Shown here one piece after another: positions 10,734-28,595 of a stretch of DNA of 64,000 nucleotides; within the stretch, counting starts at the first letter, position 1; each line of letters starts with the position of its first letter. The notes under the pieces are model-generated. The model saw only the letters and a program-made list of their open reading frames with translations, did not search any database and was not told the origin of the DNA. Location of the stretch: NCBI GenBank assembly GCA_022340925.1, contig JAJDNA010000042.1:45612-109611 (forward strand), read 5' to 3'. Both the position numbers and the translations under genes were made by a program. Origin of the DNA: Thiocapsa sp. (GTDB lineage: Bacteria; Pseudomonadota; Gammaproteobacteria; Chromatiales; Chromatiaceae).

Positions 10734-10920
10734 GAAAACTCCCGCCGGGCGCTGATACCCCGGTCGTGGTGTGCGTCGTCGTTCGAGTGTTCGCAGCTCG
10801 GGCCCCACCATTGGCTTGCATTTTTCGACACGGCGGATAGATTGACCCGAGCTTATCCCGCCGCCGCGTCGCCTGCCAGTGCCGACCGATCCGACCAGCG
10901 AGACTGTCCCGCAAGCGCCC

Positions 10921-12048
10921 ATGCGCATCCGCCCCGCAGTGCTCGCGGACGTGAGCGCCTTGACCCGTTTGGAGATCGCAAGCTTCGACAGCGACCGCCT
11001 AACCCGTCGACAGTTCCGCTACATGCTGACCCGTGCGCGCGCCCGCACGCTGGTCGCGGAAGCCGAGGGCGTCCTGCTGGGGTATGTGATGGTTCTCTTC
11101 AGCCGCGCCACCTCGGTGGCGCGGCTCTACTCCATCGCGGTGGCGGCACAGGCGCGTGGGCGGGGTGTCGGACACGCGCTGGTTGCGGCCGCCGAAGCCT
11201 CTGCCTGGGAGCAGGAGCGCGCCTACATGCGTCTAGAGATTCGCCGCGACAATGTCACCTCCCAGGCACTCTTCGAGCATGCGGGTTACCGGCGCTTCGG
11301 GGTCCTGTCGAATTACTATGCCGACCACATGGAGGCGCTGCGTTACGAGAAGACGCTCTCCCCGGAGCGGAAGCCGGAGTTGAAGCGGGTGCCCTTCTAC
11401 GAGCAGACACTGGATTTCACCTGCGGCTCCTCTTCCCTGATGATGGCGATGCAGGCGCTGCGCCCGAGCCTCGATCTGAACCGCACCTTGGAGCTGCGGA
11501 TCTGGCGGGAGTCCACGACGATCTTCATGACCTCGGGTCATGGGGGCTGCGGTCCCTTGGGGCTGGCCCTGTCGGCCCATGCGAGAGGGTTCGCCGTACA
11601 GATCTACGTCAACGACCCCGGCGTCCCGCTCGTCGACTCGGTGCGCAGCCCCGAGAAGAAGGAGGTGATGCGCCTGGTCCACGAAGACATGCTTGCCGAG
11701 GCGCAGCGCCTGGGTATCCCGGTCAACCACGGAACCCTCAGCGTGGAGGATCTGCAACAGCACTGGGATGCCGGCGCCGTGCCCCTGGTGATGATCAGCT
11801 CCTACCGCATCTATCGCGAGCGATTTCCCCATTGGGTCGTCATCACGGGGTTCGACGAGCACTTCGTCTATGTCCACGACCCATATGTCGACTACGCCAA
11901 CGGAGAGACCACGCTGGATTCAATCGATATGCCCATTCGACGGGACGACTTCAGCCGCATGGCCCGCTACGGACGCGTCAGGCTGCGGGCCGTCGTCCTC
12001 GTCTCCCTTCCCCAGACCACCGCGACCAGGGGAGCCTCCGGTGGCTGA
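10921..12048 (+). CDS. GNAT N-acetyltransferase fused to a C39-like (papain-fold) peptidase domain
   Basis: The N-terminal part MRIRPAVLADVSALTRLE...RLYSIAVAAQARGRGVGHALV (Q/RxxGxG/A acetyl-CoA loop) resembles RimI. The C-terminal part has DFTCGSSSLMMAM (candidate nucleophile Cys, codon 11422-11424) and FPHWVVITGFD (candidate His, 11830-11832). The track start GTG at 10879 is an alternative. Confidence 0.75.
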   Translation: MRIRPAVLADVSALTRLEIASFDSDRLTRRQFRYMLTRARARTLVAEAEGVLLGYVMVLFSRATSVARLYSIAVAAQARGRGVGHALVAAAEASAWEQERAYMRLEIRRDNVTSQALFEHAGYRRFGVLSNYYADHMEALRYEKTLSPERKPELKRVPFYEQTLDFTCGSSSLMMAMQALRPSLDLNRTLELRIWRESTTIFMTSGHGGCGPLGLALSAHARGFAVQIYVNDPGVPLVDSVRSPEKKEVMRLVHEDMLAEAQRLGIPVNHGTLSVEDLQQHWDAGAVPLVMISSYRIYRERFPHWVVITGFDEHFVYVHDPYVDYANGETTLDSIDMPIRRDDFSRMARYGRVRLRAVVLVSLPQTTATRGASGG

Positions 12049-13522
12049 GCACATCCTGCTGGTCGAGCAACAGGCCGACTGGAAGCCGGGCTTTCCGCGT
12101 CTGCCTGTGGTCACGGCGCGCGATTATCTCGCCGGCGGAGAGCTGGCGTCCAAGCGCGACCTGCGAGTCATCAATCTCTGCCGCAGCTATCGCTATCTCT
12201 CCGTCGGCTACTATTGCTCGCTGCTGGCTGAGGCGAGGGGCCACAAGGTGATTCCGACCGTGCGGACGATCCAGGAGCTCTCGAGCCGAGAGCTCTACAG
12301 CCTTTCCACCGAGGAGCTGGACGGACTGGTGCAGCGCTTGCTGGGGCGGCGCAAGACCTCCGCGCTCGCCCCCACGGCCTATGAGTTGACCATCTGCTTC
12401 GGCCAGTGTGACGTCAAGGAGCTGCAGCACCTGGCCCGCGAGATCTTCGAGACCTTCCGCTGCCCGATCCTGCGCGTGGACTTTCGGCTTAACGGAACCT
12501 GGCGCATCGGTGCCATCAAGGCGCTGCCGCTGGCCGCCGTTCCAGCCCACGGCGAAGGCCCTCTGTTCACCGCGCTCGAGGGCTATCTGTCGCAGCGCTG
12601 GCGCCAGCCGCGGGCGCGCCTCTCCTACCGATACGATCTGGCCGTCCTCCAGGATCCTGCCGAAGAGCTTCCGCCTTCCGACGCGAAGGCGCTGCAGCGC
12701 TTCGTCAAGGTCGGAAAGTCGTTGGGTGTCAACGTGGAGCTTATCCAGCGCCGGGACTACAGCCGACTCGCCGAGTACGACGCCCTTTTCATCCGCGAGA
12801 CGACGCGGATCGGTCACCATACCTTTCGCTTCGCCAAAAAGGCCGACAGCGAGGGCATGGTGGTCATCGACGACCCGGACTCGATTCTGCGGTGTACGAA
12901 CAAGGTCTATCTGGCCGAGCTCTTGGCCGCGCATCGCATCCCGCGACCCAAGACCCTGGTCTTGCGTAAGGAGAACCTGATGGAGGCCGAGGAGCGGATC
13001 GGTTATCCGGTCGTGCTCAAGATCCCGGAGGGGTCCTTCTCGCGGGGGGTCTTCAGGGCGGAGGATCGCGCCGGACTGACGCGGATCGCCGCAAGACTCT
13101 TCAAAGAGTCCGATCTGATACTGGCGCAGGAGTATCTCTACACGCCGTTCGACTGGCGCATCGGCATCCTCGGCCGCCACCCCTTCTATGCCTGCAAGTA
13201 TCTGATGAGCCGCGATCATTGGCAGATCGTCAAACATCGGTCCGATGGCCGCCACGAGCAGGGCGGGTTCGAGACGCTGTCGGTGGAGGAGGTCCCGCCA
13301 ACGGTCCTGAAGACCGCCCTGAAGGCTGCCGATCTGATCGGTGACGGCCTGTATGGGGTCGATCTCAAGGAGACGCCGGCCGGACCGGTCGTGATCGAGG
13401 TCAACGACAATCCGAGCCTGGATGCGGGGGTCGAGGACAAGGTGCTGGGCGACCAGCTCTACGCACGCCTGATCAGTGAATTCGTTGCGCGTCTCGAGCG
13501 GATGCGCGCGGGCAAGCGCTGA
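12041..13522 (+). CDS. RimK-family ATP-grasp ligase with about 200-aa N-terminal extension
   Basis: The GTG at 12041 is preceded by GGAG and overlaps the upstream TGA (GTGGCTGA). The C-terminal ATP-grasp is YPVVLKIPEGSFSRGVF...ILAQEYLYTPFDWRIGIL...GLYGVDLKETPAGPVVIEVNDNPSLDAGVE. The track ORF 11870.. extends implausibly into the previous gene. Confidence 0.8.
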   Translation: MAEHILLVEQQADWKPGFPRLPVVTARDYLAGGELASKRDLRVINLCRSYRYLSVGYYCSLLAEARGHKVIPTVRTIQELSSRELYSLSTEELDGLVQRLLGRRKTSALAPTAYELTICFGQCDVKELQHLAREIFETFRCPILRVDFRLNGTWRIGAIKALPLAAVPAHGEGPLFTALEGYLSQRWRQPRARLSYRYDLAVLQDPAEELPPSDAKALQRFVKVGKSLGVNVELIQRRDYSRLAEYDALFIRETTRIGHHTFRFAKKADSEGMVVIDDPDSILRCTNKVYLAELLAAHRIPRPKTLVLRKENLMEAEERIGYPVVLKIPEGSFSRGVFRAEDRAGLTRIAARLFKESDLILAQEYLYTPFDWRIGILGRHPFYACKYLMSRDHWQIVKHRSDGRHEQGGFETLSVEEVPPTVLKTALKAADLIGDGLYGVDLKETPAGPVVIEVNDNPSLDAGVEDKVLGDQLYARLISEFVARLERMRAGKR

Positions 13523-16382: not shown

Positions 16383-18389
16383 ATGTCCTTCAACGCGTTG
16401 ATCCCACTCTCGCTCGGCATGCTCGGGCTGGGGGCGGCCTACTACATCTATACGCTGGTCTTGCAGTATCCGGAAGGCGAGGAAAAGATCAAAAAGATCG
16501 CCGATGAAATCCATCTCGGGGCGATGGTGTTCATGAAACGCGAGCTGCTTCTCCTGAGCGTCTTTTGCGTTGTCGTATTGATCCTGCTGCTCTACTTCCT
16601 TGGCTGGAAGACCGCCTTGGCCTTCGTGATCGGCGCAGGGGCATCCGCAACCGCCGGGTTCCTTGGAATGTTCTCCGCGACCAAGGCCAATGTCCGGACC
16701 ACCACCGCCGCGCATGGGCGGGGCGCCCCGGAAGCACTCACCGTCGCCTTCTTCGGCGGCTCGGTCATGGGTCTGCTGGTTGCGTCACTGGGATTGCTGG
16801 GTCTCGGCTTTCTCTATCTGCTCTTCGGCGGTGATCCCGAAACCTCTCACGCCATCCATGGCTTCGGTGTGGGGGCCTCGTCAGTCGCGCTCTTTTATCG
16901 CGTCGGCGGCGGTATCTTCACCAAGAGCGCGGATGTCGGGGCCGACCTCGTCGGTAAGATCGAGGCCGGTATTCCAGAGGACGATCCTCGCAATCCGGGG
17001 GTCATTGCCGACAATGTGGGCGACAATGTGGGCGACGTGGCCGGCATGGGATCGGACATCTTCGAATCCTATTGCGGTGCCCAGATCGCCACCATTGCGA
17101 TCGCGGCGACCATGTCGGCCGCGACCCTGGCGGTGCTGGGCTCCCAGTCGGCGCTCATGTTTCTGCCGCTGGCGCTGGCCTCGGTCGGACTGCTCTGCTC
17201 GATCGCCGGCGTCTTTCTTGTCAAGGCGGTCTCGGCGACCAAGCCCGCGACGGCCCTGCGCACCGGAACCATCGGGGCCAGCCTGCTCTTCATCGGGACG
17301 TCTTATCTGGTCGTGTGGCTCGTCGATGTCTCCAATCACATCTGGTGGTCTGTTCTCGCCGGCGCGCTCGGCGGCATCGTCATCGGCTTGGTGACCGAGT
17401 ACTATACCTCGGCTGCGCCGGTGCGCCGCATCGCTAAGTCGGGTGAGACAGGGACCGCGACGGTCATGATCTCCGGCTTGGCGGTGGGGATGCAATCGGT
17501 CGTAATCCCGGTTTTCACGATCGCGCTGATCATCTTTGTCTCCAGTCAGTTGGCCGGCCTTTACGGGGTCGGTATCGCCGCTGTCGGCATGCTGGCCACG
17601 GTCGGGATCACCATGGCGATCGACGCCTACGGCCCGGTTGCCGACAATGCGGGCGGTATCGCCGAGATGGGTGGTCTGGGTTCGGAGACCCGAGGCATCA
17701 CCGACTCGCTCGATGAGTTGGGCAATACCACGGCCGCCATCGGCAAGGGTTTCGCCATCGGGGCGGCGGCCCTCGCCGCCTTGACCATCATTGCCGCCTA
17801 CATCGAGACGCTGCACGCGCAGATCCCGGACTTTTCCTTGAGCCTCGGCGATCCCAACGTCCTGATGGGGATGCTGATCGGCGGTGCGATTCCGTTCCTC
17901 ATCGCTGCGATCACCATGACCGCGGTAGGTGATGCCGCCTTCGCCATGATCAACGAGATCCGTCGCCAGTTCCATGAGATTCCGGGACTGCTGGAAGGCA
18001 CCGGCGAACCGGACACCGCGCGCTGCGTCGATATCGCCACCACGGCGGCGATCAAGAAGATGATCCTGCCCGGCGTGATCGCGGTTAGCGCACCGGCGCT
18101 GGTCGGATTCGGTATCGGACCCCAGGCACTGGGCGGCATGCTGGGCGGTGCACTGCTCGCGGGCGTGCTGCTCGCCTTGACCATGGCCAACTCAGGCGGC
18201 GCTTGGGACAACGCCAAGAAGTACGTGGAGAAGGGCAATCTCGGCGGCAAGGGATCGACGGTGCACGCGGCCACCGTGGTCGGCGACACCGTCGGCGACC
18301 CCTTCAAGGACACCTCCGGTCCCGCGATGAACATCCTGATCAACGTGATGGCCATCGTCAGCTTGACGATCGCGCCGCTGCTGGGCTGA
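16383..18389 (+). CDS. hppA: Membrane-bound proton-translocating pyrophosphatase
   Basis: 668 aa, about 16 TM segments. Signature motifs [27 protein letters not shown] and [10 protein letters not shown] are present. GAGGAG lies 6 nt upstream of the ATG. Confidence 0.95.
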
Positions 18390-18415
18390 AGGCGTTCAGC
18401 CGCGGTCTTGAGCCC

Positions 18416-18438
18416 GGGGGGCGCCTGGCCCCCCTTTG
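18416..18438 (+). terminator. Rho-independent terminator candidate after hppA
   Basis: GGGGGGC (18416-22), loop GCCTG, GCCCCCC (18428-34), then TTTG. It lies 27 nt after the hppA stop. Confidence 0.5.
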
Positions 18439-18459
18439 CGTGGTTGAACCGCGTCAGGC

Positions 18460-18630
18460 ATGAGAGCGTCCGGTCTCGTGTGGGACCGTGGTGATGTCGT
18501 GATCCTGACGGGAGACGCTTACGTCGATCATCCCTCGTTCGGAGTGGCGATCGCCGGGCGCCTGCTGGAGGCGCAGGGGTCTCGTCTCGGCATCATCGCC
18601 CAGCCGGACTGTACCGCACGAGGATTTGCG
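18460..18630 (+). pseudogene. ygiQ: N-terminal remnant of a YgiQ-family (UPF0313) radical SAM protein
   Basis: [43 protein letters not shown] matches the highly conserved YgiQ N-terminus (E. coli: [41 protein letters not shown]). Full-length proteins are over 700 aa. Here similarity ends about 20 nt before the 3' end of the opposite-strand gene. No CxxxCxxC motif follows. Confidence 0.6.
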
Positions 18631-18648
18631 GTAACGGATATCCTGCGC

Positions 18649-20613
18649 TCATGCGGTGAGGCGCCTGAGCCAGGCCAGGATGCCCGGCTCTGCCTCCCAG
18701 ACGTCGCGCATCGCCTCTCGATACATCCAGGCCTGGTCGTCGCCACCGGGGGTGAGGCCGCCAGGACCCAGGCGCGGTCGCTTGATGCGCTTTCGCGTCA
18801 GGTACTGAGGAATGCGGGGCAAGCGGTGCACGGCGGTCGTGAGCACCAGGCGGGCACGGTCTTGTCGCCCGAGACGGTAGAGCGCCAACACCTCGCCGTA
18901 GGCCAGGTCGGCGAGCGCGTCGTTCGGGAAGCGTCTTGCCAATGCCAGCGCAAGCTCGTCCTCACCGTCGCGCAGGTAGTGGTTCATCAGCTCGGCGCGC
19001 ACGCCGTGGTTATCCTGAGGGTTGAGCCGCAGCAAGGTCTCGAGGGTCCGCGCGGCGTCCTCGGACTCACCTTCCTCGACCTGGCAGAGATAGAGTCGGA
19101 AGAGCAGACGCAGGGCCGGTCGATTGCGCGGTGACGACCAAGGGATCTGGTAAGGCGTATCGGGTGGGAGCACTCGATCCAGGATCGACCAGGCACGCTC
19201 CAAGAGAGGTCGCAGCAAGACATGCGAGATCCAGGGCAGGGCGCTCTCGGGGTGCACGTAGAGCGCCGTGGCCAGATCGTCGAGGGCTTCCAGGCTGTCA
19301 GCGAGCTGCGGGTGCCCGAACAGATACGCGAGCCAGTCCTGGTCGGCCCATGGTGCGGCGTCTCCGGCCGGAGTGAGATGGGTCGAATGGGGCTTGCCGG
19401 TCGGGAAGACGGCCTGCCAGGTCCTTTCGAGACGAGAGATCGAGGCCGGCGTGCTCAATTGCATCGGAATCGCCGCATGGCCCGCCTGTGCGTCGGTCGC
19501 CTCGTCGGGATGCGTGATCGGGATCGCACCAGCCGGGTCGTCGAATAAGGCGAGCTGACCCGGTGGCCGGGCGGCCCCTGATGCGCCAAGGGGGGTCAAG
19601 CGGTAATCCGGGAAGGAGCGGGTTTGAATGAGGGTGCACCAGTCGTGCAACTCTAGGATCCGAGGGTCCAGGACATCCGAATGGCTGTCGACCAGCGCGT
19701 TCTGGGGGTCGTCGGATGCGCGTGTCAGGAAATGGATGACGCCCGGGTGATCAAACCCGATTCGGCGAAACCGGTGCAACCAGACTCGGGCCCGTTCGCG
19801 AGCGATCCAGTCCTTATGTTGCGCTGCCAGGAGCGTGATCTCCAAGATGGCGGTGCCGGCATTGTCCGGGTCACTTCTCAGTGCCGCGGTGAAGGCCGCG
19901 TCCGCCCGCCTGTGATCGCCCTCGTCGATCGCCATCGTGCAGCGCCGCTGCCAGGCCGCGGCCTGCAGCGGGCGGGCGCCCTCGGTGCAGATCCGCTCCA
20001 GGAACCTTTGCTTCTTCCGCCAATGGTCGAGTCGATCGTAGGCGTCGCAGAGGATGTCGACGGCCGGCTCGAGCGCTTCCCCGAGCACATCGAGCCGATC
20101 CGAAAACAGGGGCTCCAGGAGCGCCACGGCACGCTTCGGGCGGTCCTCTTCAAGCCAGCGATCCGCGATGCGCGCGAGCAAGGGTTTCGGGACTGCATCC
20201 AAAGACAATGCCTCGCGGAGCCCATGCTCGGGAAGCTCGTCGAGCAGGATTTCCCAAACGAGGTCGGTCGAGAGCTCCGGCAGGTCCTCGATGGCGCCAC
20301 AGCAGTCACGGTAACGGCTGCCTGAGCCGCAGGGGCAGGGGGCGTCGGCCGGGTGTGGCACCATGGGTTGGGGTTGGAAGGCCTGTGTAGGCTGCGGCGT
20401 GGCGTTCCAGATCGCGGCGGCCAGCAGGTTGGCGAGCCGCCGACGCTCGACGTCGTCGAGCGGGGTGGCGGCCAGTCCGAGCATCTCCGGGAGGTGATCG
20501 CGTGCCCAGTCGAGAAAGCGGTCTGGATCCGGGGCGAGCAGGATCTGTCGCACCGAGCGCTGGATGATTTCCTCGAAGCGTTCGGAATCGGCGGTCTCGT
20601 AATCGGACATCAT
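18649..20613 (-). CDS. SEC-C motif protein with TPR-like C-terminal region, function unknown
   Basis: A tandem ATG ATG at 20613/20610 is preceded by [22 protein letters not shown] is a canonical SEC-C metal-binding motif near residue 100. The C-terminal helical repeats ([43 protein letters not shown]) look TPR-like. Confidence 0.7.
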
Positions 20614-21165
20614 CAGCTCCTCCGCTGGATGGAGGCAATCTTGGGACCCGCCCATCGCCTGCCTGACGATCGCCCCGCGGCTGGGACCGCACCGCTGCAG
20701 CGTGTATCAAGAGTTCGGGTACGTTGTCACGGTCCAGGCGCGACTTCAGACGCTCGTCGTGCCACGTCAACGCATCATTGGCCGATCGGACGTTGACCCG
20801 ATTGTAAACCCTAAGGGTCTCGATTTCTCGATGATCTGACAGCGATGGGCGGTCTGGACGTCCCCGTGTGGAAACGGCGTGATGGGCAGCAAACGTGCTA
20901 ATGTCATGTCCGGCGTCACCCGACCGCCGCGGCCCGGCGTCGTCGGTCAGCGCCCGGGGGCGACTCTGAGGGAAGTGCTGAGAATGGTCAGCGCTTCCGG
21001 CGCGGGGCGTGCCGCTCGGGATTCGCGGCCAGCGCCAGGCACGTCGGATGATCGCAGAGGCCACCCGGCGTTCGTTCCGGATCTGCACGCATCCCGGCCC
21101 CAGTTGGATCCGCCTGACTGAGCTACTGCGCGAGACCTTGGCCCTGAATAATCCGCGGCGCCCCG

Positions 21166-24100
21166 ATGACTGAACCCAAGGTCAGAATCTTCGTCTCCTC
21201 GCCGTCGGATCTGGACCATGAGCGGGCCCTGGTCAAGGATGTCATCGATGCGCTCGCGCAAGAGTACCTCCCCTATTTCAAGCTCCAGTCGATCCTCTGG
21301 GAAGAGGAGGCATTGACCGCGGCGCAGAGCTTTCAGGCCGGACTGCTGCGGCCGTCGGAGTGCGAGATCGTGGTGGTCATGCTCTGGTCGAGGCTCGGGA
21401 CGCCGCTCGCGGAGGATCCCTACGGAGGGATGACCGGGACCGAGTGGGAGTTCATCGATGCGGTCAGGGCCTCTTCGCGAAGCGGCAGCCCGGAGGTCTT
21501 GGTCTATAAAAAGGCCGCGCCGCGTCTGGTGGACGTCAACAACACCGAGGCGACCCGGGAGGCATTGGCGGACCGGCACCGGCTGGATGAGTTCTTCCGC
21601 GCGCATTTCTTCAACCCCGATGGGAGCTTCAGCCGTGCCTTCCGCCAGTTCGGCAATGATCGTGCGTTACGGGATCTCCTTGATGCTCAACTGCGCAAGC
21701 TTCTGAATCGTCGCATTACCGCCGAACGGCGGCTGGTTTCCGCCGCCGGCGGCTGGCACGGCAGTCCTTTTCGAGCCGAGGGACCGTTCGAGCTGGGTGA
21801 CGATCGCGTCTTCACCGGCCGCGAGACGGAGACCCGTGAGGTGCTCGCGCGACTTGAGGCGATGCAGGGTCCCGGCCGCGGACTTCTGCTCGTGTCGGGC
21901 CCGAGCGGGGTCGGCAAGAGCTCCCTGATCCGCGCCGGGGTCTTGCCCCGTCTGGGGAGGCCTTTTCTGTTTTCGGGCATCTCCGGTTGCCGCTGGTCTC
22001 TCGTCGAATTGGATGATCGGGATCCGATCGAGTCGCTTGCCGCCGCGATCGCCACCGCTGGGATGCTGGGTCCAGCGCTGACTGCTTTCGGGCTCGACGT
22101 TTCAGGCTTGGGACGATTGTTGGTCAGCGAGCCGCAGGTGGCCGGTGAGCAGATGCGGGCCGCCCTGCTGCAGGCTGCCGATGATGGCGCGCCGCCGGAT
22201 GACGGTGTAGGCGGGAAACAGCAGCTCGCCGTCGTCGTGGATCCGCTCGATCGGCTGTTCCGCGAGCCGATTCTGCCGACCCCACGCGTCCAGGCGTTCG
22301 CCGCCGCTCTGGCGCTGCTCGCCGCCCAGGACGGCATCTGGGTGATCTCGACGCTGCGCAGCGATCACCTTCGTCACATAGCGGACATCCCCGCTCTCGC
22401 CGCCCACTTGGACGATCAGGGTTGGTTTCGGCTCGACCCACCGCCTCCGTCGAGGATTCGCCAGGTCATCGAGATCCCGGCGCGGGTCGCCGGCATCGAG
22501 TATGAAGGGATGGCGGGCGGCAGCGGGCGAGGCCTGGTCGAGGAGCTGGAGTCCGAGGCCAGTCGGCTGGTGCATTGGCCCGCCGCGCTGGAGCCGGCGC
22601 TGGACGAGATCTATCGACTGGCACTCGCACGATCCCGGGACGCGGACAGATCCCACTCGCAGCTTCTGACCCTTCGCGACTATCGGAGCGTCGGAGGGCT
22701 CTCGGGATCGCTCCTGAGGCGCGCGGAGGCCCTCTGGCAGCGCTTGGAGGAAGAGGTGAAGGATGCCCTGCCGATCCTGTGCCGGGGTTTGATCGCGCTC
22801 GAAGCGGGCGGCGCATCAGCGCCCAGCGCCCGCAGCGGCGATCTGCGCACCTTGACAAGCGACGCCAGGGCCAGGATGTTGATTGAATCCTTGATCGCCG
22901 CCCGCCTGGTAGTCGCAGACGGCGTAGCCGATCCGCCGAGTCATCTTGGCTGCCCCAGGAGCGCGCCGCGCTTGCTGGATGACCTGAGGCATCTCCTCAT
23001 CCGGACCGGCGATGATTGGCGTGAGCGATTCCGTGTCGGGGATGCATCCTCGGCGCGGGAGCCGTTGGTCGAGACCGAGCTCCGGACGGCAGGATCGGTC
23101 CAAGCCGCCGCCGGCGCCGAAGGGGTTGCGCGGTGGGACGAGTATCGTCCGATCGCCAGCTTTGCCCACCCGGCCTTGTTCGAGCGCTGGCGGCCCGTGC
23201 GTGACTGGCTGGCAAACCCAGACAACCGGGGCGACCTCATCCTGCGCTACCAGGTCTCGCGCCAGGCCCGTCTCTGGAAACGGACCGACTGCAATCGGGA
23301 ATATCTGCTGGGGGAGGCCGGCTTCGCAGCGGCGCGTCGCTTTGCCGATGCCCACGCGGACGAGTTGGAACCCTTGGAGCAGGAGCTCTTGGAGCAATCC
23401 CACGAAAATCTCCTGCTTCAGCGACGTCGCAACCGCTGGGCGCGGATCCTGGGTCTGACTCTGGTCGCTCTGCTGGTTCTGGCCACCACGGCCGCTTTCT
23501 GGGCCTGGGACGCCTCGCGTGAGGCAACGGTCAACCTGCAGCGCAGCCTCCTGAAGGCGGCCGATCTGGCCATCGCATGGGGCAATACGCCTGAGGCGGT
23601 CCGCCTCGCCCTGAATGCCGGTCCCTACCTTCCGGAGGAGGCCACCGATACCCTCAGTCGCGCCTTCACCACGAACCGGCTGATCGCGATGGTCCAGTCC
23701 AAGGTCCTGCCTGGCGATCAACCCCAGCGGCCTGCGTTTCGTGACGACGGCGAGCGCCTGGTCACGCAAGCCCGGGGCGAGGGTGCGCAGCTCTGGGCGC
23801 TGCGCGAGCAGAGCTTCCAGCCGCAGAGGCGCCTGTTCGGTCCGGAGACACCGATCCACTCGGTTCGCTTCGTCGGTGACGGGGAGGCTCAACTGATCCT
23901 CGGCATCGGTGAGACCGGGGTTTGGCGGCTCCCGCTCGAGTCCGCTCAGGCGGCGGACTGGACCTGTGGTGCACCGGCGGAGAGCCCGATCGCACTCGAC
24001 GCAGAGGGGCGCTTCCTCGCACTCTCGCATGAGGCTCCGCGCGATCGATTCGCGATCTGCGTCTTGGCCCTGGATGAACCCGGCAAGGTCCTCTGGGACC

Positions 24101-26037
24101 GGTCTGTGCATGCGAGCCAGGTGCGCAGCCTGGCCTTCGAGCCGGGGGGGGCTCTGCTGGTCACGGCCTCGCGGGATGGATCGGCGCGGGTGCTCGAGAC
24201 TCTCACGGGGACCGAACGCCTGGTGCTGCCGAAAAGCGGTCCCCTGGGGCGGCCGGTGAACCACGCCGAATTTGACCCGACCGGACAGCGGGTCGCGGTC
24301 TCCTCGGCCGACGAGCGGATCCGCGTCTACGATCTTGATGGCCGGCAGCTCGCCGACCTCGGCGTCGTTACCCGCGACGGCAGCCGTCTGCGAGTCCACA
24401 AGTCGGCGGTGCGGGAATCCGCCTTCTCGCCGACTGGCCGGTATCTCGTCGCCGGCGATGACGGAGGGCAGGTCGTCCGTTGGGATCTGGAGAGCGGACA
24501 GGCGGAGATCCTCGGCCATCATGGTCTCAGTGTCGAGCATGTGCGGATTTCGACCAGGGGCGGTGACGACAGCCCCGAGCCTCTGATCCTGACCGCATCG
24601 CTCGACAAGACGGCGCGACTCTGGGGGTTGCTGACCGGCAAGGAGATCGCTGTCTTCAGTCATGATGCTGCGGTCTCGGAGGCGCGTTTCAGTCGTGACG
24701 GGACACGTGTGTTGACTTACTCGGATCTCGACGGCTCCGCACGGCTCTGGTCGGTCAAGCCGACCGAGACATTGGCCTCTCGTCTTCCCAGCGCAGATCA
24801 TGTCTGGCATCTGGCAATGGCCACGGGAGCCGACGGCCCCATGACCGTCCTGCTGGCCACCGCTGCCTTCGACGGCCGTGTAGAGGTGTGGATCCATGAT
24901 CGGCGTGCCGAGACCCTGCCGCCGGTGCGCATCTGGAGCTTGTCGGGTCATCAAGGACGAGTCCGCCGTGTCGCCTTCTCGCCATCGGCCAAGTACCTGG
25001 CCAGCGCCGGCCACGACGGTGCAGCCTGGGTCTGGAACCTGACGACCGGCGGGGGCTGCCGGTTGCCGGTGGCGGCCGAAGGGGTTGCGTGCCGACCGGA
25101 TGGCGGTCGCGCCTGTCCCTATGTTCACCAGGTCCTTTTTTCACCGGATGAGCGCTGGTTGCTGACCACGTCCAGCGATCCGCGGCAGCCGGTGCGTCTC
25201 TGGGATCCCCGGGCCTGTGGACCGCTGGTGGACTCACCGCGGTGGGCCGAGGGCGGGGTCGCGGCGCAGGCAGGGGCGGTCTCGGTGGGACAGGATGGAG
25301 TGACCCAGGTGGCGATCGGAGACGACGGCGGGGGGGTGCGTGTGATGCGTGCCGGACCCGGGAGTGATTGGGTTCAGGTGTGCTCGGAGCAGTTGCATCG
25401 CGAGGCGGTGACCGAGGTCGCCTTTGCACCGGATGGGGGCTCGCTCGCCTCATCCAGTGAGGACGGGCGGGCTGCCTTGGTGTCCCTCACCGCCGGGCGA
25501 TGCGGTCCCCCGCGCTATCTGGAGCCCGAGGCCGGAGCGCTCTACGGCGTGCGCTTTGCGCCGGACGGAGCGGCACTGGTGACCGCGGCCTTCGCGGCCA
25601 AGGCGCATGTCTGGAGCCTCGACGGTGCCCTTCTCGCCGAGCTTTCCGGTCACAAGGATCGGATCTATGCGGCAGAGTTCAGCCCCGATGGTCGCTGGCT
25701 GCTCACCGCCTCGCGAGACGGCTCGGTGCGCCTCTGGCAGCGCCCGACGACTCCGAGCACCGAGCCGGTCGGGTCCTATCTGACCCTGGCGGCGGACCTG
25801 GGCGGGGTAGCCTACGCCGGCTTCAGCCCCGACGGGCATACGCTCGCCGCGGCCTACTGGGAGAACGCGACCCTCCTGTGGCGGCTTTGGAACGAGGCCG
25901 GGACCCCGGATCGAGCGCTGGTGTCTCTGTGGGGCCGCGACCGCGCACGCCTGGCCCTGATTCGCGAGGCCAACCGCTTCCGGAGCGAGAACCGGCTCGA
26001 TCCGAGCACGGGTCCAGCCGCCGGCTCGACCGATTAG
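21166..26037 (+). CDS. NLR-like STAND protein: DUF4062/TIR-like N-terminal domain, P-loop NTPase, single TM helix, C-terminal WD40 beta-propellers
   Basis: 1623 aa.
- Residues 1-120: RIFVSSPSDLDHER...CEIVVVMLWSRLG...TGTEWEFIDA...VLVYKK resembles Pfam DUF4062.
- Walker A: GPSGVGKSS (21898-21924).
- Walker B-like: LAVVVDPLDRLF (about 22222).
- Post-NTPase segment: HPALFERWRPVRDWL...LLGEAGFAAARRF.
- Hydrophobic helix: ARILGLTLVALLVLATTAAFWAW (23440-23508).
- At least 12 WD40-like blades: ASRDGSARVLE, SSADERIRVYD, ASLDKTARLWG, AGHDGAAWVWN, ASRDGSVRLWQ and others. Confidence 0.85.
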   Translation: MTEPKVRIFVSSPSDLDHERALVKDVIDALAQEYLPYFKLQSILWEEEALTAAQSFQAGLLRPSECEIVVVMLWSRLGTPLAEDPYGGMTGTEWEFIDAVRASSRSGSPEVLVYKKAAPRLVDVNNTEATREALADRHRLDEFFRAHFFNPDGSFSRAFRQFGNDRALRDLLDAQLRKLLNRRITAERRLVSAAGGWHGSPFRAEGPFELGDDRVFTGRETETREVLARLEAMQGPGRGLLLVSGPSGVGKSSLIRAGVLPRLGRPFLFSGISGCRWSLVELDDRDPIESLAAAIATAGMLGPALTAFGLDVSGLGRLLVSEPQVAGEQMRAALLQAADDGAPPDDGVGGKQQLAVVVDPLDRLFREPILPTPRVQAFAAALALLAAQDGIWVISTLRSDHLRHIADIPALAAHLDDQGWFRLDPPPPSRIRQVIEIPARVAGIEYEGMAGGSGRGLVEELESEASRLVHWPAALEPALDEIYRLALARSRDADRSHSQLLTLRDYRSVGGLSGSLLRRAEALWQRLEEEVKDALPILCRGLIALEAGGASAPSARSGDLRTLTSDARARMLIESLIAARLVVADGVADPPSHLGCPRSAPRLLDDLRHLLIRTGDDWRERFRVGDASSAREPLVETELRTAGSVQAAAGAEGVARWDEYRPIASFAHPALFERWRPVRDWLANPDNRGDLILRYQVSRQARLWKRTDCNREYLLGEAGFAAARRFADAHADELEPLEQELLEQSHENLLLQRRRNRWARILGLTLVALLVLATTAAFWAWDASREATVNLQRSLLKAADLAIAWGNTPEAVRLALNAGPYLPEEATDTLSRAFTTNRLIAMVQSKVLPGDQPQRPAFRDDGERLVTQARGEGAQLWALREQSFQPQRRLFGPETPIHSVRFVGDGEAQLILGIGETGVWRLPLESAQAADWTCGAPAESPIALDAEGRFLALSHEAPRDRFAICVLALDEPGKVLWDRSVHASQVRSLAFEPGGALLVTASRDGSARVLETLTGTERLVLPKSGPLGRPVNHAEFDPTGQRVAVSSADERIRVYDLDGRQLADLGVVTRDGSRLRVHKSAVRESAFSPTGRYLVAGDDGGQVVRWDLESGQAEILGHHGLSVEHVRISTRGGDDSPEPLILTASLDKTARLWGLLTGKEIAVFSHDAAVSEARFSRDGTRVLTYSDLDGSARLWSVKPTETLASRLPSADHVWHLAMATGADGPMTVLLATAAFDGRVEVWIHDRRAETLPPVRIWSLSGHQGRVRRVAFSPSAKYLASAGHDGAAWVWNLTTGGGCRLPVAAEGVACRPDGGRACPYVHQVLFSPDERWLLTTSSDPRQPVRLWDPRACGPLVDSPRWAEGGVAAQAGAVSVGQDGVTQVAIGDDGGGVRVMRAGPGSDWVQVCSEQLHREAVTEVAFAPDGGSLASSSEDGRAALVSLTAGRCGPPRYLEPEAGALYGVRFAPDGAALVTAAFAAKAHVWSLDGALLAELSGHKDRIYAAEFSPDGRWLLTASRDGSVRLWQRPTTPSTEPVGSYLTLAADLGGVAYAGFSPDGHTLAAAYWENATLLWRLWNEAGTPDRALVSLWGRDRARLALIREANRFRSENRLDPSTGPAAGSTD

Positions 26038-26093
26038 ATCGACCCTCGACCTCCATCCTCCGACCGGCAACCTCTGAACACTGAAACGTTTCC

Positions 26094-26996
26094 CTAACCC
26101 TGGGTGAGTGCCAATACCCCGAGCAGCATGACGGCCGATCCGATCAGCTTGGCGATCGGATGGGTCTCACGGAAGAACCGGCGTCCGAGCAGCACCGAAA
26201 AGACGCCGGCCGTGCGTTTGACCGCCATGGCATAGGAGGCCAGGGTCAGGCTGAGCGCGATCTGGTCGGCGATGCGCATCAAGGCGAACAGGCCGCCAAG
26301 CACGAGCAATGGGCGCGCTTGGTGTCGCGTCTGGTCGGTGAAGATCCGGGCATAGAAACCCCGATCGTGAAGCGTGAACAGGACGAAGAGCACCAATGGG
26401 TTGACGATTGCGACGACCACGGCGAAGGATAAAGGGTCGCTCAGCTGGATGCCGATGCGTCCGAAGACGCTGGCCGCGGCGAAACAGGCGGCGGCGCACA
26501 CGGCGAGGCGGCTGCCGGGGTCAGTAACGAGTCGCTTGAACGGGAGCGACCAGCCTACCCGACGGTCGCTGAGGCTCAGGATATAGCTGCCGGCGACCAG
26601 GAAGGCGATGCCAAGCACGCCGACTGCGCCGGGCAGCACGCCGGTCAGGACCCACTCGATCAGGATCACGAAACCGGGTGTGAACGTGATCATCGGGCCC
26701 ACCAGTGAGACCTCGCTCTTGTGGATCGCGGCGTTCAGCGCCCAACCACCCAAGGCGGACAGCACCCCGCCGCAGAGCACGGCCAGCAGATACCGGGGCT
26801 CGTGAAACGGGAACTGGTGGTTCCAGACGATCAGCGGCAGCGTGATCGCCAGGCTGATGAGGTTGACATAGAAGGTCAGGACCTCGGCCGAGAAGCTGAG
26901 GCCGAGGTGCTTGGTGACCGCGAGGCGGGAGGCATGAAAGAAGGCCGAGGCCAGCGAGAACAGGATCCAGAGGTGGGCGAATGCAGACAGGTCCAT
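26094..26996 (-). CDS. EamA/DMT-family transporter
   Basis: The ATG at 26996 (MDLSAFAHLWILFSLASAFFHASRLAVTKHL) gives 300 aa with about 10 TM segments and the two-EamA-repeat pattern. Confidence 0.8.
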   Translation of the reverse strand: MDLSAFAHLWILFSLASAFFHASRLAVTKHLGLSFSAEVLTFYVNLISLAITLPLIVWNHQFPFHEPRYLLAVLCGGVLSALGGWALNAAIHKSEVSLVGPMITFTPGFVILIEWVLTGVLPGAVGVLGIAFLVAGSYILSLSDRRVGWSLPFKRLVTDPGSRLAVCAAACFAAASVFGRIGIQLSDPLSFAVVVAIVNPLVLFVLFTLHDRGFYARIFTDQTRHQARPLLVLGGLFALMRIADQIALSLTLASYAMAVKRTAGVFSVLLGRRFFRETHPIAKLIGSAVMLLGVLALTQG

Positions 26997-27212
26997 CCGG
27001 TGGGAGTGCAGTGAGGCTCGGCCTGGATACGGGCGCCAAGCTGGCGCATGTTGTGCCACGCCCATCCGACATGGCTGAGTCGATCAGCTTTGGCGACTGC
27101 TCAGGATCATACACCGACAAAGGCGCACGCATGGGCCCTCCGACCCGGAAAAGGCGCTCTCCCCAAGCCGGTCGAGCAGGCCGCACGAGATGCGCCCTGC
27201 GCCCCCTTGCTC

Positions 27213-28595
27213 TCAGACCCAACCCAGATGAGGGTTCGCGAAGTGCCGGATCGGCTCGAAACGCAGCGCGGGATCGTCATCGCATTGGGTCTGGTTGAAT
27301 GCGGCGAAGCGGCGCTGGAATGCCGTCCGACGGTGCCATTCGCGAGGGGTCAGTCTCCCCGCGTTCCGCAAGACCCGCACGCTCGGGATTCCACCGAGGC
27401 TGAGCAGTCCCGCGCCACCGATGCCGGAGAAAAGCTTCGGCTGAAGAGTCAGGTGGACCCTGGACGCCTGACCGAGCGGGGCCCCACGGCGATTGCGAAT
27501 CGGGGCATACAGGTTCATCGCGTAGGCGGGCAGGTTGAGCGTCATGAGATGCCTCCGTCGCGCCGGTCCAGCGCCACGCAAGCGGCGCGCGACCTTTTCA
27601 GGCAGATCCTCGAGGGCGCGGGCGAGGTGCCGGAGGCCGGCTTGGACCTCAGCCGAGAGGGGCAGTGATGCGATGCCGGCAGCGATCTCCATGGGTGGCA
27701 ACAGTCCATGTCGCCGCCAGGGCGGCGGGGGGGTTCGCTGCCCCGTGAAAACCTCCAGCAGGTCTGCGGACATCCTGTCCAGGTGCCGATGCAGGCGCCG
27801 GATCAGGTCCTCGAAGTCAGGGTTTGCGAGCACCTCCCACCCGGGCAGCTCGATCAGACAGCCGATCGGACGCTGACCCCTGATCGTCAGCGCGTCGTCG
27901 GGTCTCACCAGGCGCGCGCCACGGATGCCCAGATCGAGTCCGGCAATCGCCTCGTAGATCAGGTGCGCACCGAGGAAGGTGAGTGGGTCGATGGCCTGGC
28001 GACGCACCCGGGGATCGGTGACGGGCGCGAGTCGTTCGGCGCCGCGCAGGGCCTCCAGCACCGCATCCTCCCAGTAGAGTAGATGCAGATGAAACTGCTT
28101 CGCGGCCTGGACGCTCTCCCTGTCGCCCGTATTGGGATCACAGTTGAGCGCGAGATGCAGCTGGCCATCGACCAGGCCAAAGCCATTCATAACCTCGGGC
28201 TCGGACACGAACCGGACGAAATTCAGGCCCGTCCTCCACAGGCAACGCCCGGTGAGCGGCTCGACCGCGTCCGGGGTCGCCTTGGTTGGCGTGGAGACCT
28301 CGGTCACCATGAGGTCGTGGAGGCTATGGGGAGAGACCTTGTCGATCAGGGCCAACCGGTCGCCGTTGCAGGTAATTTCCTGAATCGTTCGGCGGGCGAA
28401 ACGCCGCCGCGGGTCCGGATGGTCGACCTCGGGCCGGGTCAGGGCGTAATCGGCCGGCGGTCCCGCCATGCGCAGGTGCGCCCAGGCCACTCTCAGCCGA
28501 TCCAAGTCCGGTGGATACAGAGGTGCGAACCGGTCGGGCCGCCCCTGTCCGATTGCGGGCGAGGGCCTCGGATCCTTCGTCGACAAGAGGCTCAC
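27213..28595 (-). CDS. Hypothetical protein with HIT-like motif (N..G..SV....FHLHLL)
   Basis: 460 aa with good coding appearance. The GTG start overlaps the upstream stop (GTGA at 28592-28595). NCDPNTGDRESVQAAKQFHLHLLYW resembles the HIT-superfamily histidine-triad region, with H169 at 28089-91 and H171 at 28083-85. I do not recognise any other motif. Confidence 0.6.
   Translation of the reverse strand: MSLLSTKDPRPSPAIGQGRPDRFAPLYPPDLDRLRVAWAHLRMAGPPADYALTRPEVDHPDPRRRFARRTIQEITCNGDRLALIDKVSPHSLHDLMVTEVSTPTKATPDAVEPLTGRCLWRTGLNFVRFVSEPEVMNGFGLVDGQLHLALNCDPNTGDRESVQAAKQFHLHLLYWEDAVLEALRGAERLAPVTDPRVRRQAIDPLTFLGAHLIYEAIAGLDLGIRGARLVRPDDALTIRGQRPIGCLIELPGWEVLANPDFEDLIRRLHRHLDRMSADLLEVFTGQRTPPPPWRRHGLLPPMEIAAGIASLPLSAEVQAGLRHLARALEDLPEKVARRLRGAGPARRRHLMTLNLPAYAMNLYAPIRNRRGAPLGQASRVHLTLQPKLFSGIGGAGLLSLGGIPSVRVLRNAGRLTPREWHRRTAFQRRFAAFNQTQCDDDPALRFEPIRHFANPHLGWV

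Follow-up and report, generated by a model that had tools for sequence, protein, structure and literature searches.

A predicted membrane-spanning STAND receptor with a DUF4062 head and tandem WD40 propellers in Thiocapsa and its purple sulfur relatives

Where does a bacterial protein that joins a DUF4062 head, a STAND NTPase and a WD40 array in one polypeptide do its sensing? The question is raised by a gene at positions 21166..26037 (+ strand) of a 64,000-nucleotide stretch of Thiocapsa sp. DNA (assembly GCA_022340925.1, contig JAJDNA010000042.1, positions 45,612 to 109,611; the whole stretch is called the window below). In the open reading frame (ORF) listing the gene is an uninterrupted 1623-codon frame with an ATG start, and it is a complete coding sequence of 1623 aa plus stop for DUF4062, nSTAND1, a transmembrane (TM) helix and a tandem WD40 propeller. 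A first-pass annotation, made from the letters alone, had described the product as a self-contained sensor-switch-effector protein. We found a conserved helix between the NTPase and the repeats that instead predicts an extracytoplasmic WD40 array, and we give roughly an even chance to the reading that the gene encodes a single-pass inner-membrane STAND receptor coupling an extracytoplasmic cue to a cytosolic NAD+ hydrolase (NADase).

A single TM helix was predicted by Kyte-Doolittle hydropathy at aa 761-781 (ILGLTLVALLVLATTAAFWAW; nt 23446..23508, +), after RRRNRWAR. Its 21 residues include the protein's top Kyte-Doolittle 19-mer mean (2.23), and the flanks hold five K/R residues on the N side and two on the C side. 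The hydrophobic helix, which directly follows the segment that the first-pass annotation had called helical/winged-helix-like, had been missed. Both the TM segment and an RRRNR-type N-flank are kept in all 35 full-length Chromatiaceae orthologs aligned, where hydrophobicity stays and sequence drifts. A word-indexed protein search revealed a comparable helix at the same place in 85 of the 120 best relatives, with the N-flank richer in K/R in 79 of those 85. An independent, exhaustive HMMER search over 1.84 billion cluster representatives (50% identity) gave the same picture: the helix is present in 112 of the 129 top matches (87%), a median of 436 residues past Walker A and with a median of 778 residues after it, and the N-flank is K/R-richer in 101 of the 112.

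No signal peptide was detected in the N-terminal 760 residues, and because these residues also contain a P-loop NTPase we assign them to the cytoplasm. A cytoplasmic N-terminal part and a helix with this charge bias together predict an N-in/C-out orientation with the WD40 array in the periplasm. The head and NTPase are thus probably cytoplasmic, and the propellers probably lie in the periplasm or in the lumen of intracytoplasmic membranes. Relatives with other C-terminal parts are instructive here. CHASE2 is by definition an extracytoplasmic sensor domain, and in the relative P0104 it stands after the same helix and is followed by three further hydrophobic helices, as is canonical for this domain; in other relatives FGE-sulfatase or RHS domains stand after the helix. 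That TM-bearing bacterial STANDs may read periplasmic signals has been suggested as a general remark (Kibby et al. 2022).

The head (aa 5-194; nt 21178..21747, +) was delimited by Pfam and an AlphaFold2 model as a TIR-like/flavodoxin-like DUF4062 domain with two long helices (aa 127-148 and 165-194). Searched alone, it scores 26.0 bits with Pfam DUF4062 (PF13271), whose gathering cutoff is 24.7 (E 1.1e-5; aa 7-99, profile positions 1-82 of 82), which bears out the DUF4062 head of the first-pass annotation. The AlphaFold2 model, built for aa 1-203 from a 30-sequence alignment, has a predicted local distance difference test (pLDDT) score of 90.1 and the order b-a-b-b-a-b-a-b-a, that is, an alternating strand-helix core and then the two long helices; it has the parallel beta-sheet of a flavodoxin/TIR-like fold. 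Among the best Foldseek matches in the Protein Data Bank (PDB) were the TIR domain of the plant protein RPS4 (E 7e-4), TIR-STING and the nucleoside-hydrolase DNPH1. The model, the TIR matches and a recent description of DUF4062 as TIR-like (Osinski 2026, bioRxiv 10.64898/2026.05.01.722283) all fit the TIR/flavodoxin-like fold that had been proposed for the head.

Conservation and position in the model point to E93-W94-E95 of the GTEWE motif (nt 21442..21450, +) as a putative catalytic glutamate site. E95 is invariant (35 of 35 orthologs and 30 of 30 family heads) and E93 is found in 33 of 35 orthologs; among the DUF4062 motif residues, F9, W45, E46 and E95 never vary, and Q57 and E93 hardly do. 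In TIR NADases the catalytic glutamate lies at the helix following the third strand. The GTEWE motif opens the helix after the third strand (strand C) of the head model, where that helix starts at aa 91, and E95 is the stronger candidate of the two glutamates. The same placement has been described for E97 of Klebsiella pneumoniae Swarozyc (KpSwz) and E1008 of human TEP1 (2026 preprints). A PDB sequence search with the head, both as a single sequence and as a 30-sequence profile, returned nothing usable for mapping E93 or E95 onto KpSwz E97 or TEP1 E1008.

The NTPase module (aa 201-709; nt 21766..23292, +) belongs to nSTAND1 (Pfam PF20703), which it matches at 183.9-188.1 bits (cutoff 27.1) over profile positions 1-376 of 379. 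Walker A, GPSGVGKSS, lies at nt 21898-21924 (+; K251 at 21916-21918), and Walker B, LAVVVDPLDRLF, of the hhhhD type, begins at aa 354 and spans nt 22225-22260 (+; D359 at 22240-22242); K251 and D359 are invariant in 35 of 35 orthologs. Pfam matches to aa 201-760 comprised only nSTAND1, AAA_16 and weak generic P-loop models, with NACHT and TROVE absent. The STAND P-loop NTPase read from the letters thus holds (nSTAND1, 183.9 bits), and so do the other details given with it: the 1623-aa ORF, every motif string quoted, the Walker B string included, and the codon positions of K251, E93 and E95 were all confirmed in the translation.

Past the TM helix lies a conserved helical juxtamembrane segment (aa 782-838; nt 23509..23679, +), which carries GNTPEAVRLALNAGPYLP...TLSRAF motif sequence and forms helices in the model. 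It is followed by tandem WD40 beta-propellers (aa 839-1574; nt 23680..25887, +; Pfam, AlphaFold2 and Foldseek), predicted to be periplasmic, and by a C-terminal tail (aa 1575-1623; nt 25888..26034, +) that was delimited from the model and the orthologs and holds one low-confidence helix. Pfam WD40 scores 189.5 bits on the full protein, accompanied by many beta-propeller models, and the three-part composition of DUF4062 head, STAND NTPase and WD40 array is thereby borne out by Pfam. The AlphaFold2 model of the ectodomain (aa 752-1623), built from a shallow 7-sequence alignment, has a pLDDT of 78.7 overall and mostly 85-95 within blades; it runs from a long helix spanning the TM segment through two short helices and ~63 strands to the low-confidence terminal helix. 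In this model the strands would form roughly 15-16 blades in a double propeller, in agreement with the earlier estimate of at least 12. Consistent with this, the best Foldseek matches were tandem double propellers, among them 2ymu (E 8e-37), WD40 proteins of the small-subunit processome and Apaf-1 (3sfz). No internal repeats were found by blastp in the propeller region, whose blades are too divergent to match one another. Six cysteines of the propeller half (934, 965, 1298, 1351, 1406 and 1446) are conserved in at least 33 of 35 orthologs.

The exhaustive search also defined the family, with 1,497 cluster representatives matched at E <= 1e-30 and 4,022 at E <= 1e-10. Nearly all of the 150 best matches align from query residue ~1-6 to ~585-590, and the DUF4062 head and nSTAND1 NTPase therefore travel as one unit. 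A GTE[WYF]E motif lies ~155 residues ahead of Walker A in 120 of 120 relatives from the word-indexed search, and the same DUF4062 head was found in all 120 of these top relatives and in ~93% of the top 129 of the exhaustive search. The variable part is the one after the TM helix, where TPR (including TPR_NPHP3 matches), WD40, FGE-sulfatase, CHASE2, RHS or extra TM helices occur. The swapping of N-terminal heads that the first-pass annotation had named as a trait of such proteins was thus not seen among these relatives, and it is the C-terminal part that varies instead; head swapping on nSTAND1 is documented only for more distant members (Kaur et al. 2021, PMC8195603).

Homologs of 700-940 aa that lack WD40 repeats (P0003-P0006 and P0010) were considered as a real architecture and rejected as assembly frameshifts: their C-termini look like high-GC sequence translated out of frame, and ORFs for WD40 stand directly after them (locus L001, 10001-14883; locus L002, 10001-14954). 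Within the 5 kb upstream of one distant family member, P0046 of Methylomonas methanica (CP002738.1, L088 3058-5490), there are NUDIX and Macro-domain genes, from two families that process ADP-ribose; their presence there may be a coincidence. The word-indexed search, whose query was aa 1-820, returned a best identity of at most 62%, although an identical 1623-aa gene sits on three public contigs, which were reached through the neighbouring gene; the exact protein seems to be lacking from what that search covered. These contigs belong to three public assemblies of the same Thiocapsa sp. metagenome-assembled genome (MAG) in which the gene is also called, GCA_022340445.1 (JAJDNZ010000165.1) and two ENA assemblies, with 3-6 substitutions relative to the window over 4872 nt.

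Distribution was surveyed with one genome per GTDB species, which yielded at least 538 confirmed loci. The best 51 of these at least 538 loci belong to Chromatiaceae or Chromatiaceae-like MAGs, with identities to the window protein of 70-72% in Thiocapsa, 58-60% in Thiocystis, Lamprocystis and Thiodictyon, 54-57% in Thiorhodococcus, 53% in Marichromatium and 45-47% in Halochromatium and Lamprobacter. Among the matches listed, the next ones beyond Chromatiaceae fall to 31-37% and come from other phyla. Ortholog identities follow taxonomy, and full-length orthologs occur in ~49 Chromatiaceae genomes, one per genome; the gene is not among the best matches for several Chromatiaceae genera. All 34 extracted ortholog frames are intact, at 1429-1712 aa, and all but one reach at least 1574 aa. 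Two full-length copies (L015 and L018; 54% and 50% identical to the window protein) were found in MAG MFD03804.bin.1.111, neither with the TPR/SEC-C neighbour described below, and paralogs therefore exist in some genomes. The gene in the window has a G+C content at third codon positions of 0.78, in line with the remaining window genes (window G+C, 66%), and no paralog of any part of it was found elsewhere in the window.

Mean ortholog identity to the window protein is 69% in the head, 48% in the NTPase core, 56% in the juxtamembrane segment, 47-52% in the propellers and 38% in the C-terminal tail. Ratios of nonsynonymous to synonymous substitution rates (dN/dS), estimated by the Nei-Gojobori method for eight ortholog pairs, were 0.02-0.15 for the head, 0.14-0.35 for the NTPase, 0.04-0.17 for the TM plus juxtamembrane part and 0.15-0.27 for the propellers. 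These values indicate purifying selection in every region of the protein, and they mean that the WD40 sensor is not evolving faster than the NTPase switch.

The genes around the locus are of a housekeeping kind: a RimK-like ligase, RsmF, LpxD, an H+-pyrophosphatase, an EamA transporter and an Mla-like ABC system. PADLOC gave no match at E <= 1e-3 on ten window neighbours and only sporadic matches on 123 neighbour ORFs from 25 orthologous loci, where the most frequent family had four members. The commonest Pfam families among these 123 ORFs, again of a housekeeping kind, were DUF7847 (first, with 10 of the 123), radical SAM, GT87, cytochrome c, EamA and ABC auxiliary components. The downstream EamA/Mla-like cluster is partly syntenic in Marichromatium, Thiorhodococcus and others, and two distant family members on long contigs likewise lie amid housekeeping genes. 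A phage collection contained no family match, and 72,556 plasmids contained five weak ones. On the protein itself, PADLOC found no full-length defence model and no Avs or bNACHT match; similarity to the candidate defence model PDC-S60 is limited to the head (E 8.7e-6), and mad8 was insignificant (E 0.028, aa 216-257, in the Walker A region). NCBIfam returned nothing meaningful. The defence-island or mobile-element context and patchy distribution by which Avs/NLR-like systems are recognised are therefore missing here. The first-pass annotation had itself held that a fixed core context without head variability would refute its proposal, and this is largely what we observed, the synteny of the housekeeping context being partial. 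We conclude that, as far as ortholog identities and gene context indicate, the clade is vertically inherited in Chromatiaceae and lies outside defence islands.

The closest neighbour is a divergent gene (nt 18649..20610, -) for a 653-aa cytoplasmic TPR-like protein with a SEC-C zinc motif (nt 20299-20346; Pfam TPR_2, SEC-C and Tcf25) and no detected signal peptide. It stands immediately upstream, in divergent orientation, in 38 of 47 orthologous loci with enough flank, with differing genes on its far side; the identities of neighbour and target to their window copies rise and fall together (r = 0.94, n = 26). A functional link between the two genes is possible. The idea that the neighbour is a dedicated partner is weakened by two complete genomes, those of Thiocystis violascens and Thermochromatium tepidum, which have it with no target alongside and with a gene of ~350 aa coming next. 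It is a conserved Chromatiaceae gene in itself, with more than 250 homologs, and the product of the window copy is 100% identical to a public 'SEC-C domain-containing protein [Thiocapsa sp.]'. The 555-bp region between the two genes (20611..21165) presumably holds the promoters of both; it is longer than in orthologous loci, where the median is ~209 bp (Thiocapsa relatives, 179 bp). No sigma-70-like site, terminator or repeat was found in it, and an Rfam scan of nt 18000-27500 gave no match.

Several observations concern these surroundings. In many genomes a gene of ~350-450 aa follows the TPR/SEC-C gene on the same strand (e.g., L083 8001-11062, L084 8001-11061 and L002 6230-9702), where the window has the H+-pyrophosphatase instead. 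Near the T. violascens TPR/SEC-C gene (CP003154.1, L083 2209-5133) are genes for an FGE-sulfatase protein and a TIR_2-FHA protein, which may be another conflict-type module. A 7.3-kb contig labelled as a Bdellovibrio bacteriovorus MAG (JBLMWY010000080.1; L007) carries a Chromatiaceae-type gene pair (identity 60% for the target, 62% for the partner) and is probably mis-binned. Within the window, at 10879-13522 (+), a RimK-like ATP-grasp gene with an RLAN domain adjoins a gene that the public annotation tags as acetyltransferase/DUF3335/peptidase C39-like; the two form an unrelated conserved pair upstream of RsmF.

From the observed domains, conserved residues and helix we infer a topology, an oligomerisation step and an NADase activity, and these would combine as follows. 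The propellers would bind a ligand or sense a change in the cell envelope, and this would cluster or re-orient receptors in the membrane. Clustering would license nucleotide-dependent oligomerisation of the nSTAND1 modules and so bring the DUF4062 heads together, whose proximity could switch on hydrolysis of NAD+ into ADP-ribose plus nicotinamide, as in Swarozyc and TEP1. The outcome might be growth arrest, death or a metabolic signal. The least certain step is the role itself, which may be surveillance of the extracytoplasmic space in Chromatiaceae; possible cues include phage or predator attack at the envelope, envelope damage and cell-cell contact in aggregates, and it is less likely that phage proteins are recognised within the cell.

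Several points weigh against such a receptor. The DUF4062 score clears its cutoff by a small margin (26.0 against 24.7), and the Foldseek statistics linking the head to TIR domains are weak, with E ~1e-3 and TM-scores that reach only 0.4-0.5 because of the added helices. The topology is predicted from hydropathy, charge bias and domain analogy, and about 13% of relatives have no detectable helix at the place in question. WD40 arrays are typically cytosolic, and we know of no characterised STAND protein that signals via a single TM helix. Four cysteines in the cytoplasmic half are also conserved, in at least 31 of 35 orthologs, and for this reason the conserved propeller cysteines are only a hint of disulfides. 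Finally, human NWD1, NWD2 and NPHP3 showed no NADase activity in vitro (2026 preprint).

The last point speaks for the alternative that survives best, namely that the protein is a conserved non-immune receptor for envelope or physiological signalling in purple sulfur bacteria. It would have the same membrane topology, its head would turn over NAD(P) or bind nucleotides in a regulated, non-lethal way or act as a scaffold, and the TPR/SEC-C neighbour might cooperate with it. The single full-length ortholog per genome with identities that track taxonomy, the synteny with the TPR/SEC-C gene and in part with the EamA/Mla-like cluster, the co-variation of partner and target, purifying selection on every region and the housekeeping neighbours all suit this explanation. 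However, the invariance of the catalytic-type glutamate together with F9, W45, E46 and Q57 argues for an active enzyme, and every DUF4062 protein of known bacterial function is a defence effector; nor is the gene a universal core gene, being absent from the best matches of several Chromatiaceae genera and missing beside the TPR/SEC-C gene of T. violascens and T. tepidum. We therefore regard a non-immune signalling role in Chromatiaceae as a serious alternative for function, though on balance a rather unlikely one.

Less probable still, and disfavoured by helix, context and slow sensor, is a self-contained cytosolic NLR/Avs-like anti-phage protein whose WD40 array binds an intracellular phage protein and whose hydrophobic helix is a peripheral or re-entrant membrane tether or not embedded at all: it draws on the effector-STAND-repeat order of Avs, bNACHT, Apaf-1 and TEP1, on DUF4062 proteins being proven anti-phage effectors with ~20% of bacterial DUF4062 genes in defence islands (Osinski 2026), and on the PDC-S60 match of the head, but it has to contend with a conserved 21-residue helix showing positive-inside bias in more than 90% of the relatives that have it, with CHASE2 and FGE-sulfatase paralogs in the position of the WD40 array, with the lack of any matching Avs or other full-length PADLOC model, with no defence gene found among the ten window neighbours scanned and only sporadic matches across the 25 loci, with no phage and five weak plasmid matches, and with a WD40 sensor that is not fast-evolving.

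Extending the single-pass receptor reading to the whole family is more tentative, and we hold the following joint proposal to be possible but somewhat doubtful. A large bacterial family (more than 1,000 clusters at 50% identity) would consist of membrane-spanning NLR-like receptors, with a conserved purple-sulfur clade; its members would connect an extracytoplasmic sensor through a single TM helix to a STAND switch and a TIR-like NADase, as a prokaryotic counterpart of Toll-like receptor logic serving envelope surveillance or social sensing, and its WD40 and TPR forms would mirror eukaryotic NWD1/TEP1 and NPHP3, respectively. To our knowledge, the trigger is read inside the cell by all STAND/NLR immune sensors and all DUF4062 NADases characterised so far. 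Should the predicted topology be true, it would follow that an NLR-type switch can also be coupled to a sensor outside the cytoplasm. The family, which is bacterial, may be related to the animal proteins TEP1, NWD1 and NPHP3 (DUF4062-NACHT-WD40/TPR), of which NPHP3 is a ciliopathy gene. It is tractable, with orthologs in the cultured Thiocapsa roseopersicina DSM 217, Marichromatium gracile and Thiorhodococcus drewsii. The locus also advises caution in annotation: no defence system is established by domain order alone, and this clade is vertical, under purifying selection and outside defence islands.

Parts of this picture are already known, namely the effector (2026 preprints), the NTPase clade (Kaur 2021), the idea of TM-STANDs reading the periplasm (Kibby 2022) and the DUF4062-STAND-WD40 order, which eukaryotic and 'bacterial TEP1-like' proteins have. 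The first-pass annotation was aware of no experimental test of its combination; this has been overtaken for the effector, since DUF4062 is now shown to be an NADase effector in Swarozyc, Evangelion and TEP1, and it stands for the bacterial DUF4062-nSTAND1-TM-WD40 arrangement, for which no test was found in the literature searched. That literature describes neither a family with a fixed DUF4062-nSTAND1 unit, a conserved TM helix and a variable, predicted extracytoplasmic sensor, nor a vertically inherited WD40 clade of it in purple sulfur bacteria, and for an explicit STAND-TM-periplasmic WD40 receptor it offered only the general remark of Kibby et al.

Among known systems, the eukaryotic proteins TEP1, NWD1 and NWD2 (WD40) and NPHP3 (TPR) share the order of DUF4062 head, STAND NTPase and repeat array. 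NCBI names a 60%-identical homolog of the window protein 'NACHT and WD repeat domain-containing protein', and TPR-type relatives match Pfam TPR_NPHP3. The window protein differs in matching nSTAND1 (188 bits) rather than NACHT, and it has neither the TROVE domain of TEP1 nor a vWA domain. The eukaryotic TEP1, NWD and NPHP3 proteins have no TM helix between NTPase and repeats, whereas the window protein has one before its repeats and is bacterial and vertically inherited in Chromatiaceae. Human TEP1 (DUF4062-NACHT-WD40) hydrolyses NAD(P)+ through E1008 with a specific activity that depends on concentration (2026 preprint).

Swarozyc and Evangelion, which are single-gene anti-phage systems, resemble the window protein in an N-terminal DUF4062 with conserved aromatic, Q/W/E and catalytic-Glu motifs, and their activation depends on the C-terminal region. 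KpSwz requires E97; its oligomer is auto-inhibited, and assembly with a phage portal activates it. Evangelion (Eva01), a DUF4062 core with an auxiliary region, depletes NAD+ (2026 preprint). Both consist of a head and a short auxiliary domain with no STAND NTPase, TM helix or repeats, whereas the C-terminal 1,400 aa of the window protein are nSTAND1, TM helix and WD40, so that it does not belong with them, and its PADLOC similarity is confined to the head. They are also enriched in defence islands or plasmids, in contrast to the housekeeping context of the window gene.

The nSTAND1 conflict systems (Kaur et al. 2021, PMC8195603; Dore et al. 2024) use the same NTPase clade, PF20703. Their N-terminal effectors include 'TIR, DRHyd', and their C-terminal sensors are FGS or repeat domains of the 'antigen receptor' type, with some targets predicted to be periplasmic. 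In the published examples the main features are FGS domains, effector-associated adaptor domains and diversity-generating retroelements; the window gene has none of them, and the WD40 sensor of the window protein is conserved and not diversified.

Avs, bNACHT and Apaf-1 share with it a tripartite effector, NTPase and repeat sensor in one polypeptide, and Apaf-1 also a tandem propeller. Their sensors are cytosolic, unlike the location predicted here from the conserved TM helix; the effector type differs, and PADLOC gave no Avs or bNACHT match. By analogy only, Toll-like receptors and receptor kinases with beta-propeller ectodomains, such as PknD of M. tuberculosis, have an ectodomain of repeats or a propeller that a single TM helix joins to a cytoplasmic signalling domain; in Toll-like receptors the latter is TIR. 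Their ectodomains are not homologous to that of the window protein, whose cytoplasmic part is N-terminal, so that the orientation is reversed; unlike Toll-like receptors, it interposes a STAND NTPase, and its TIR-like domain is predicted to be an enzyme rather than an adaptor. Even so, its layout is probably nearer to that of a Toll-like receptor than to that of a cytosolic anti-phage sensor.

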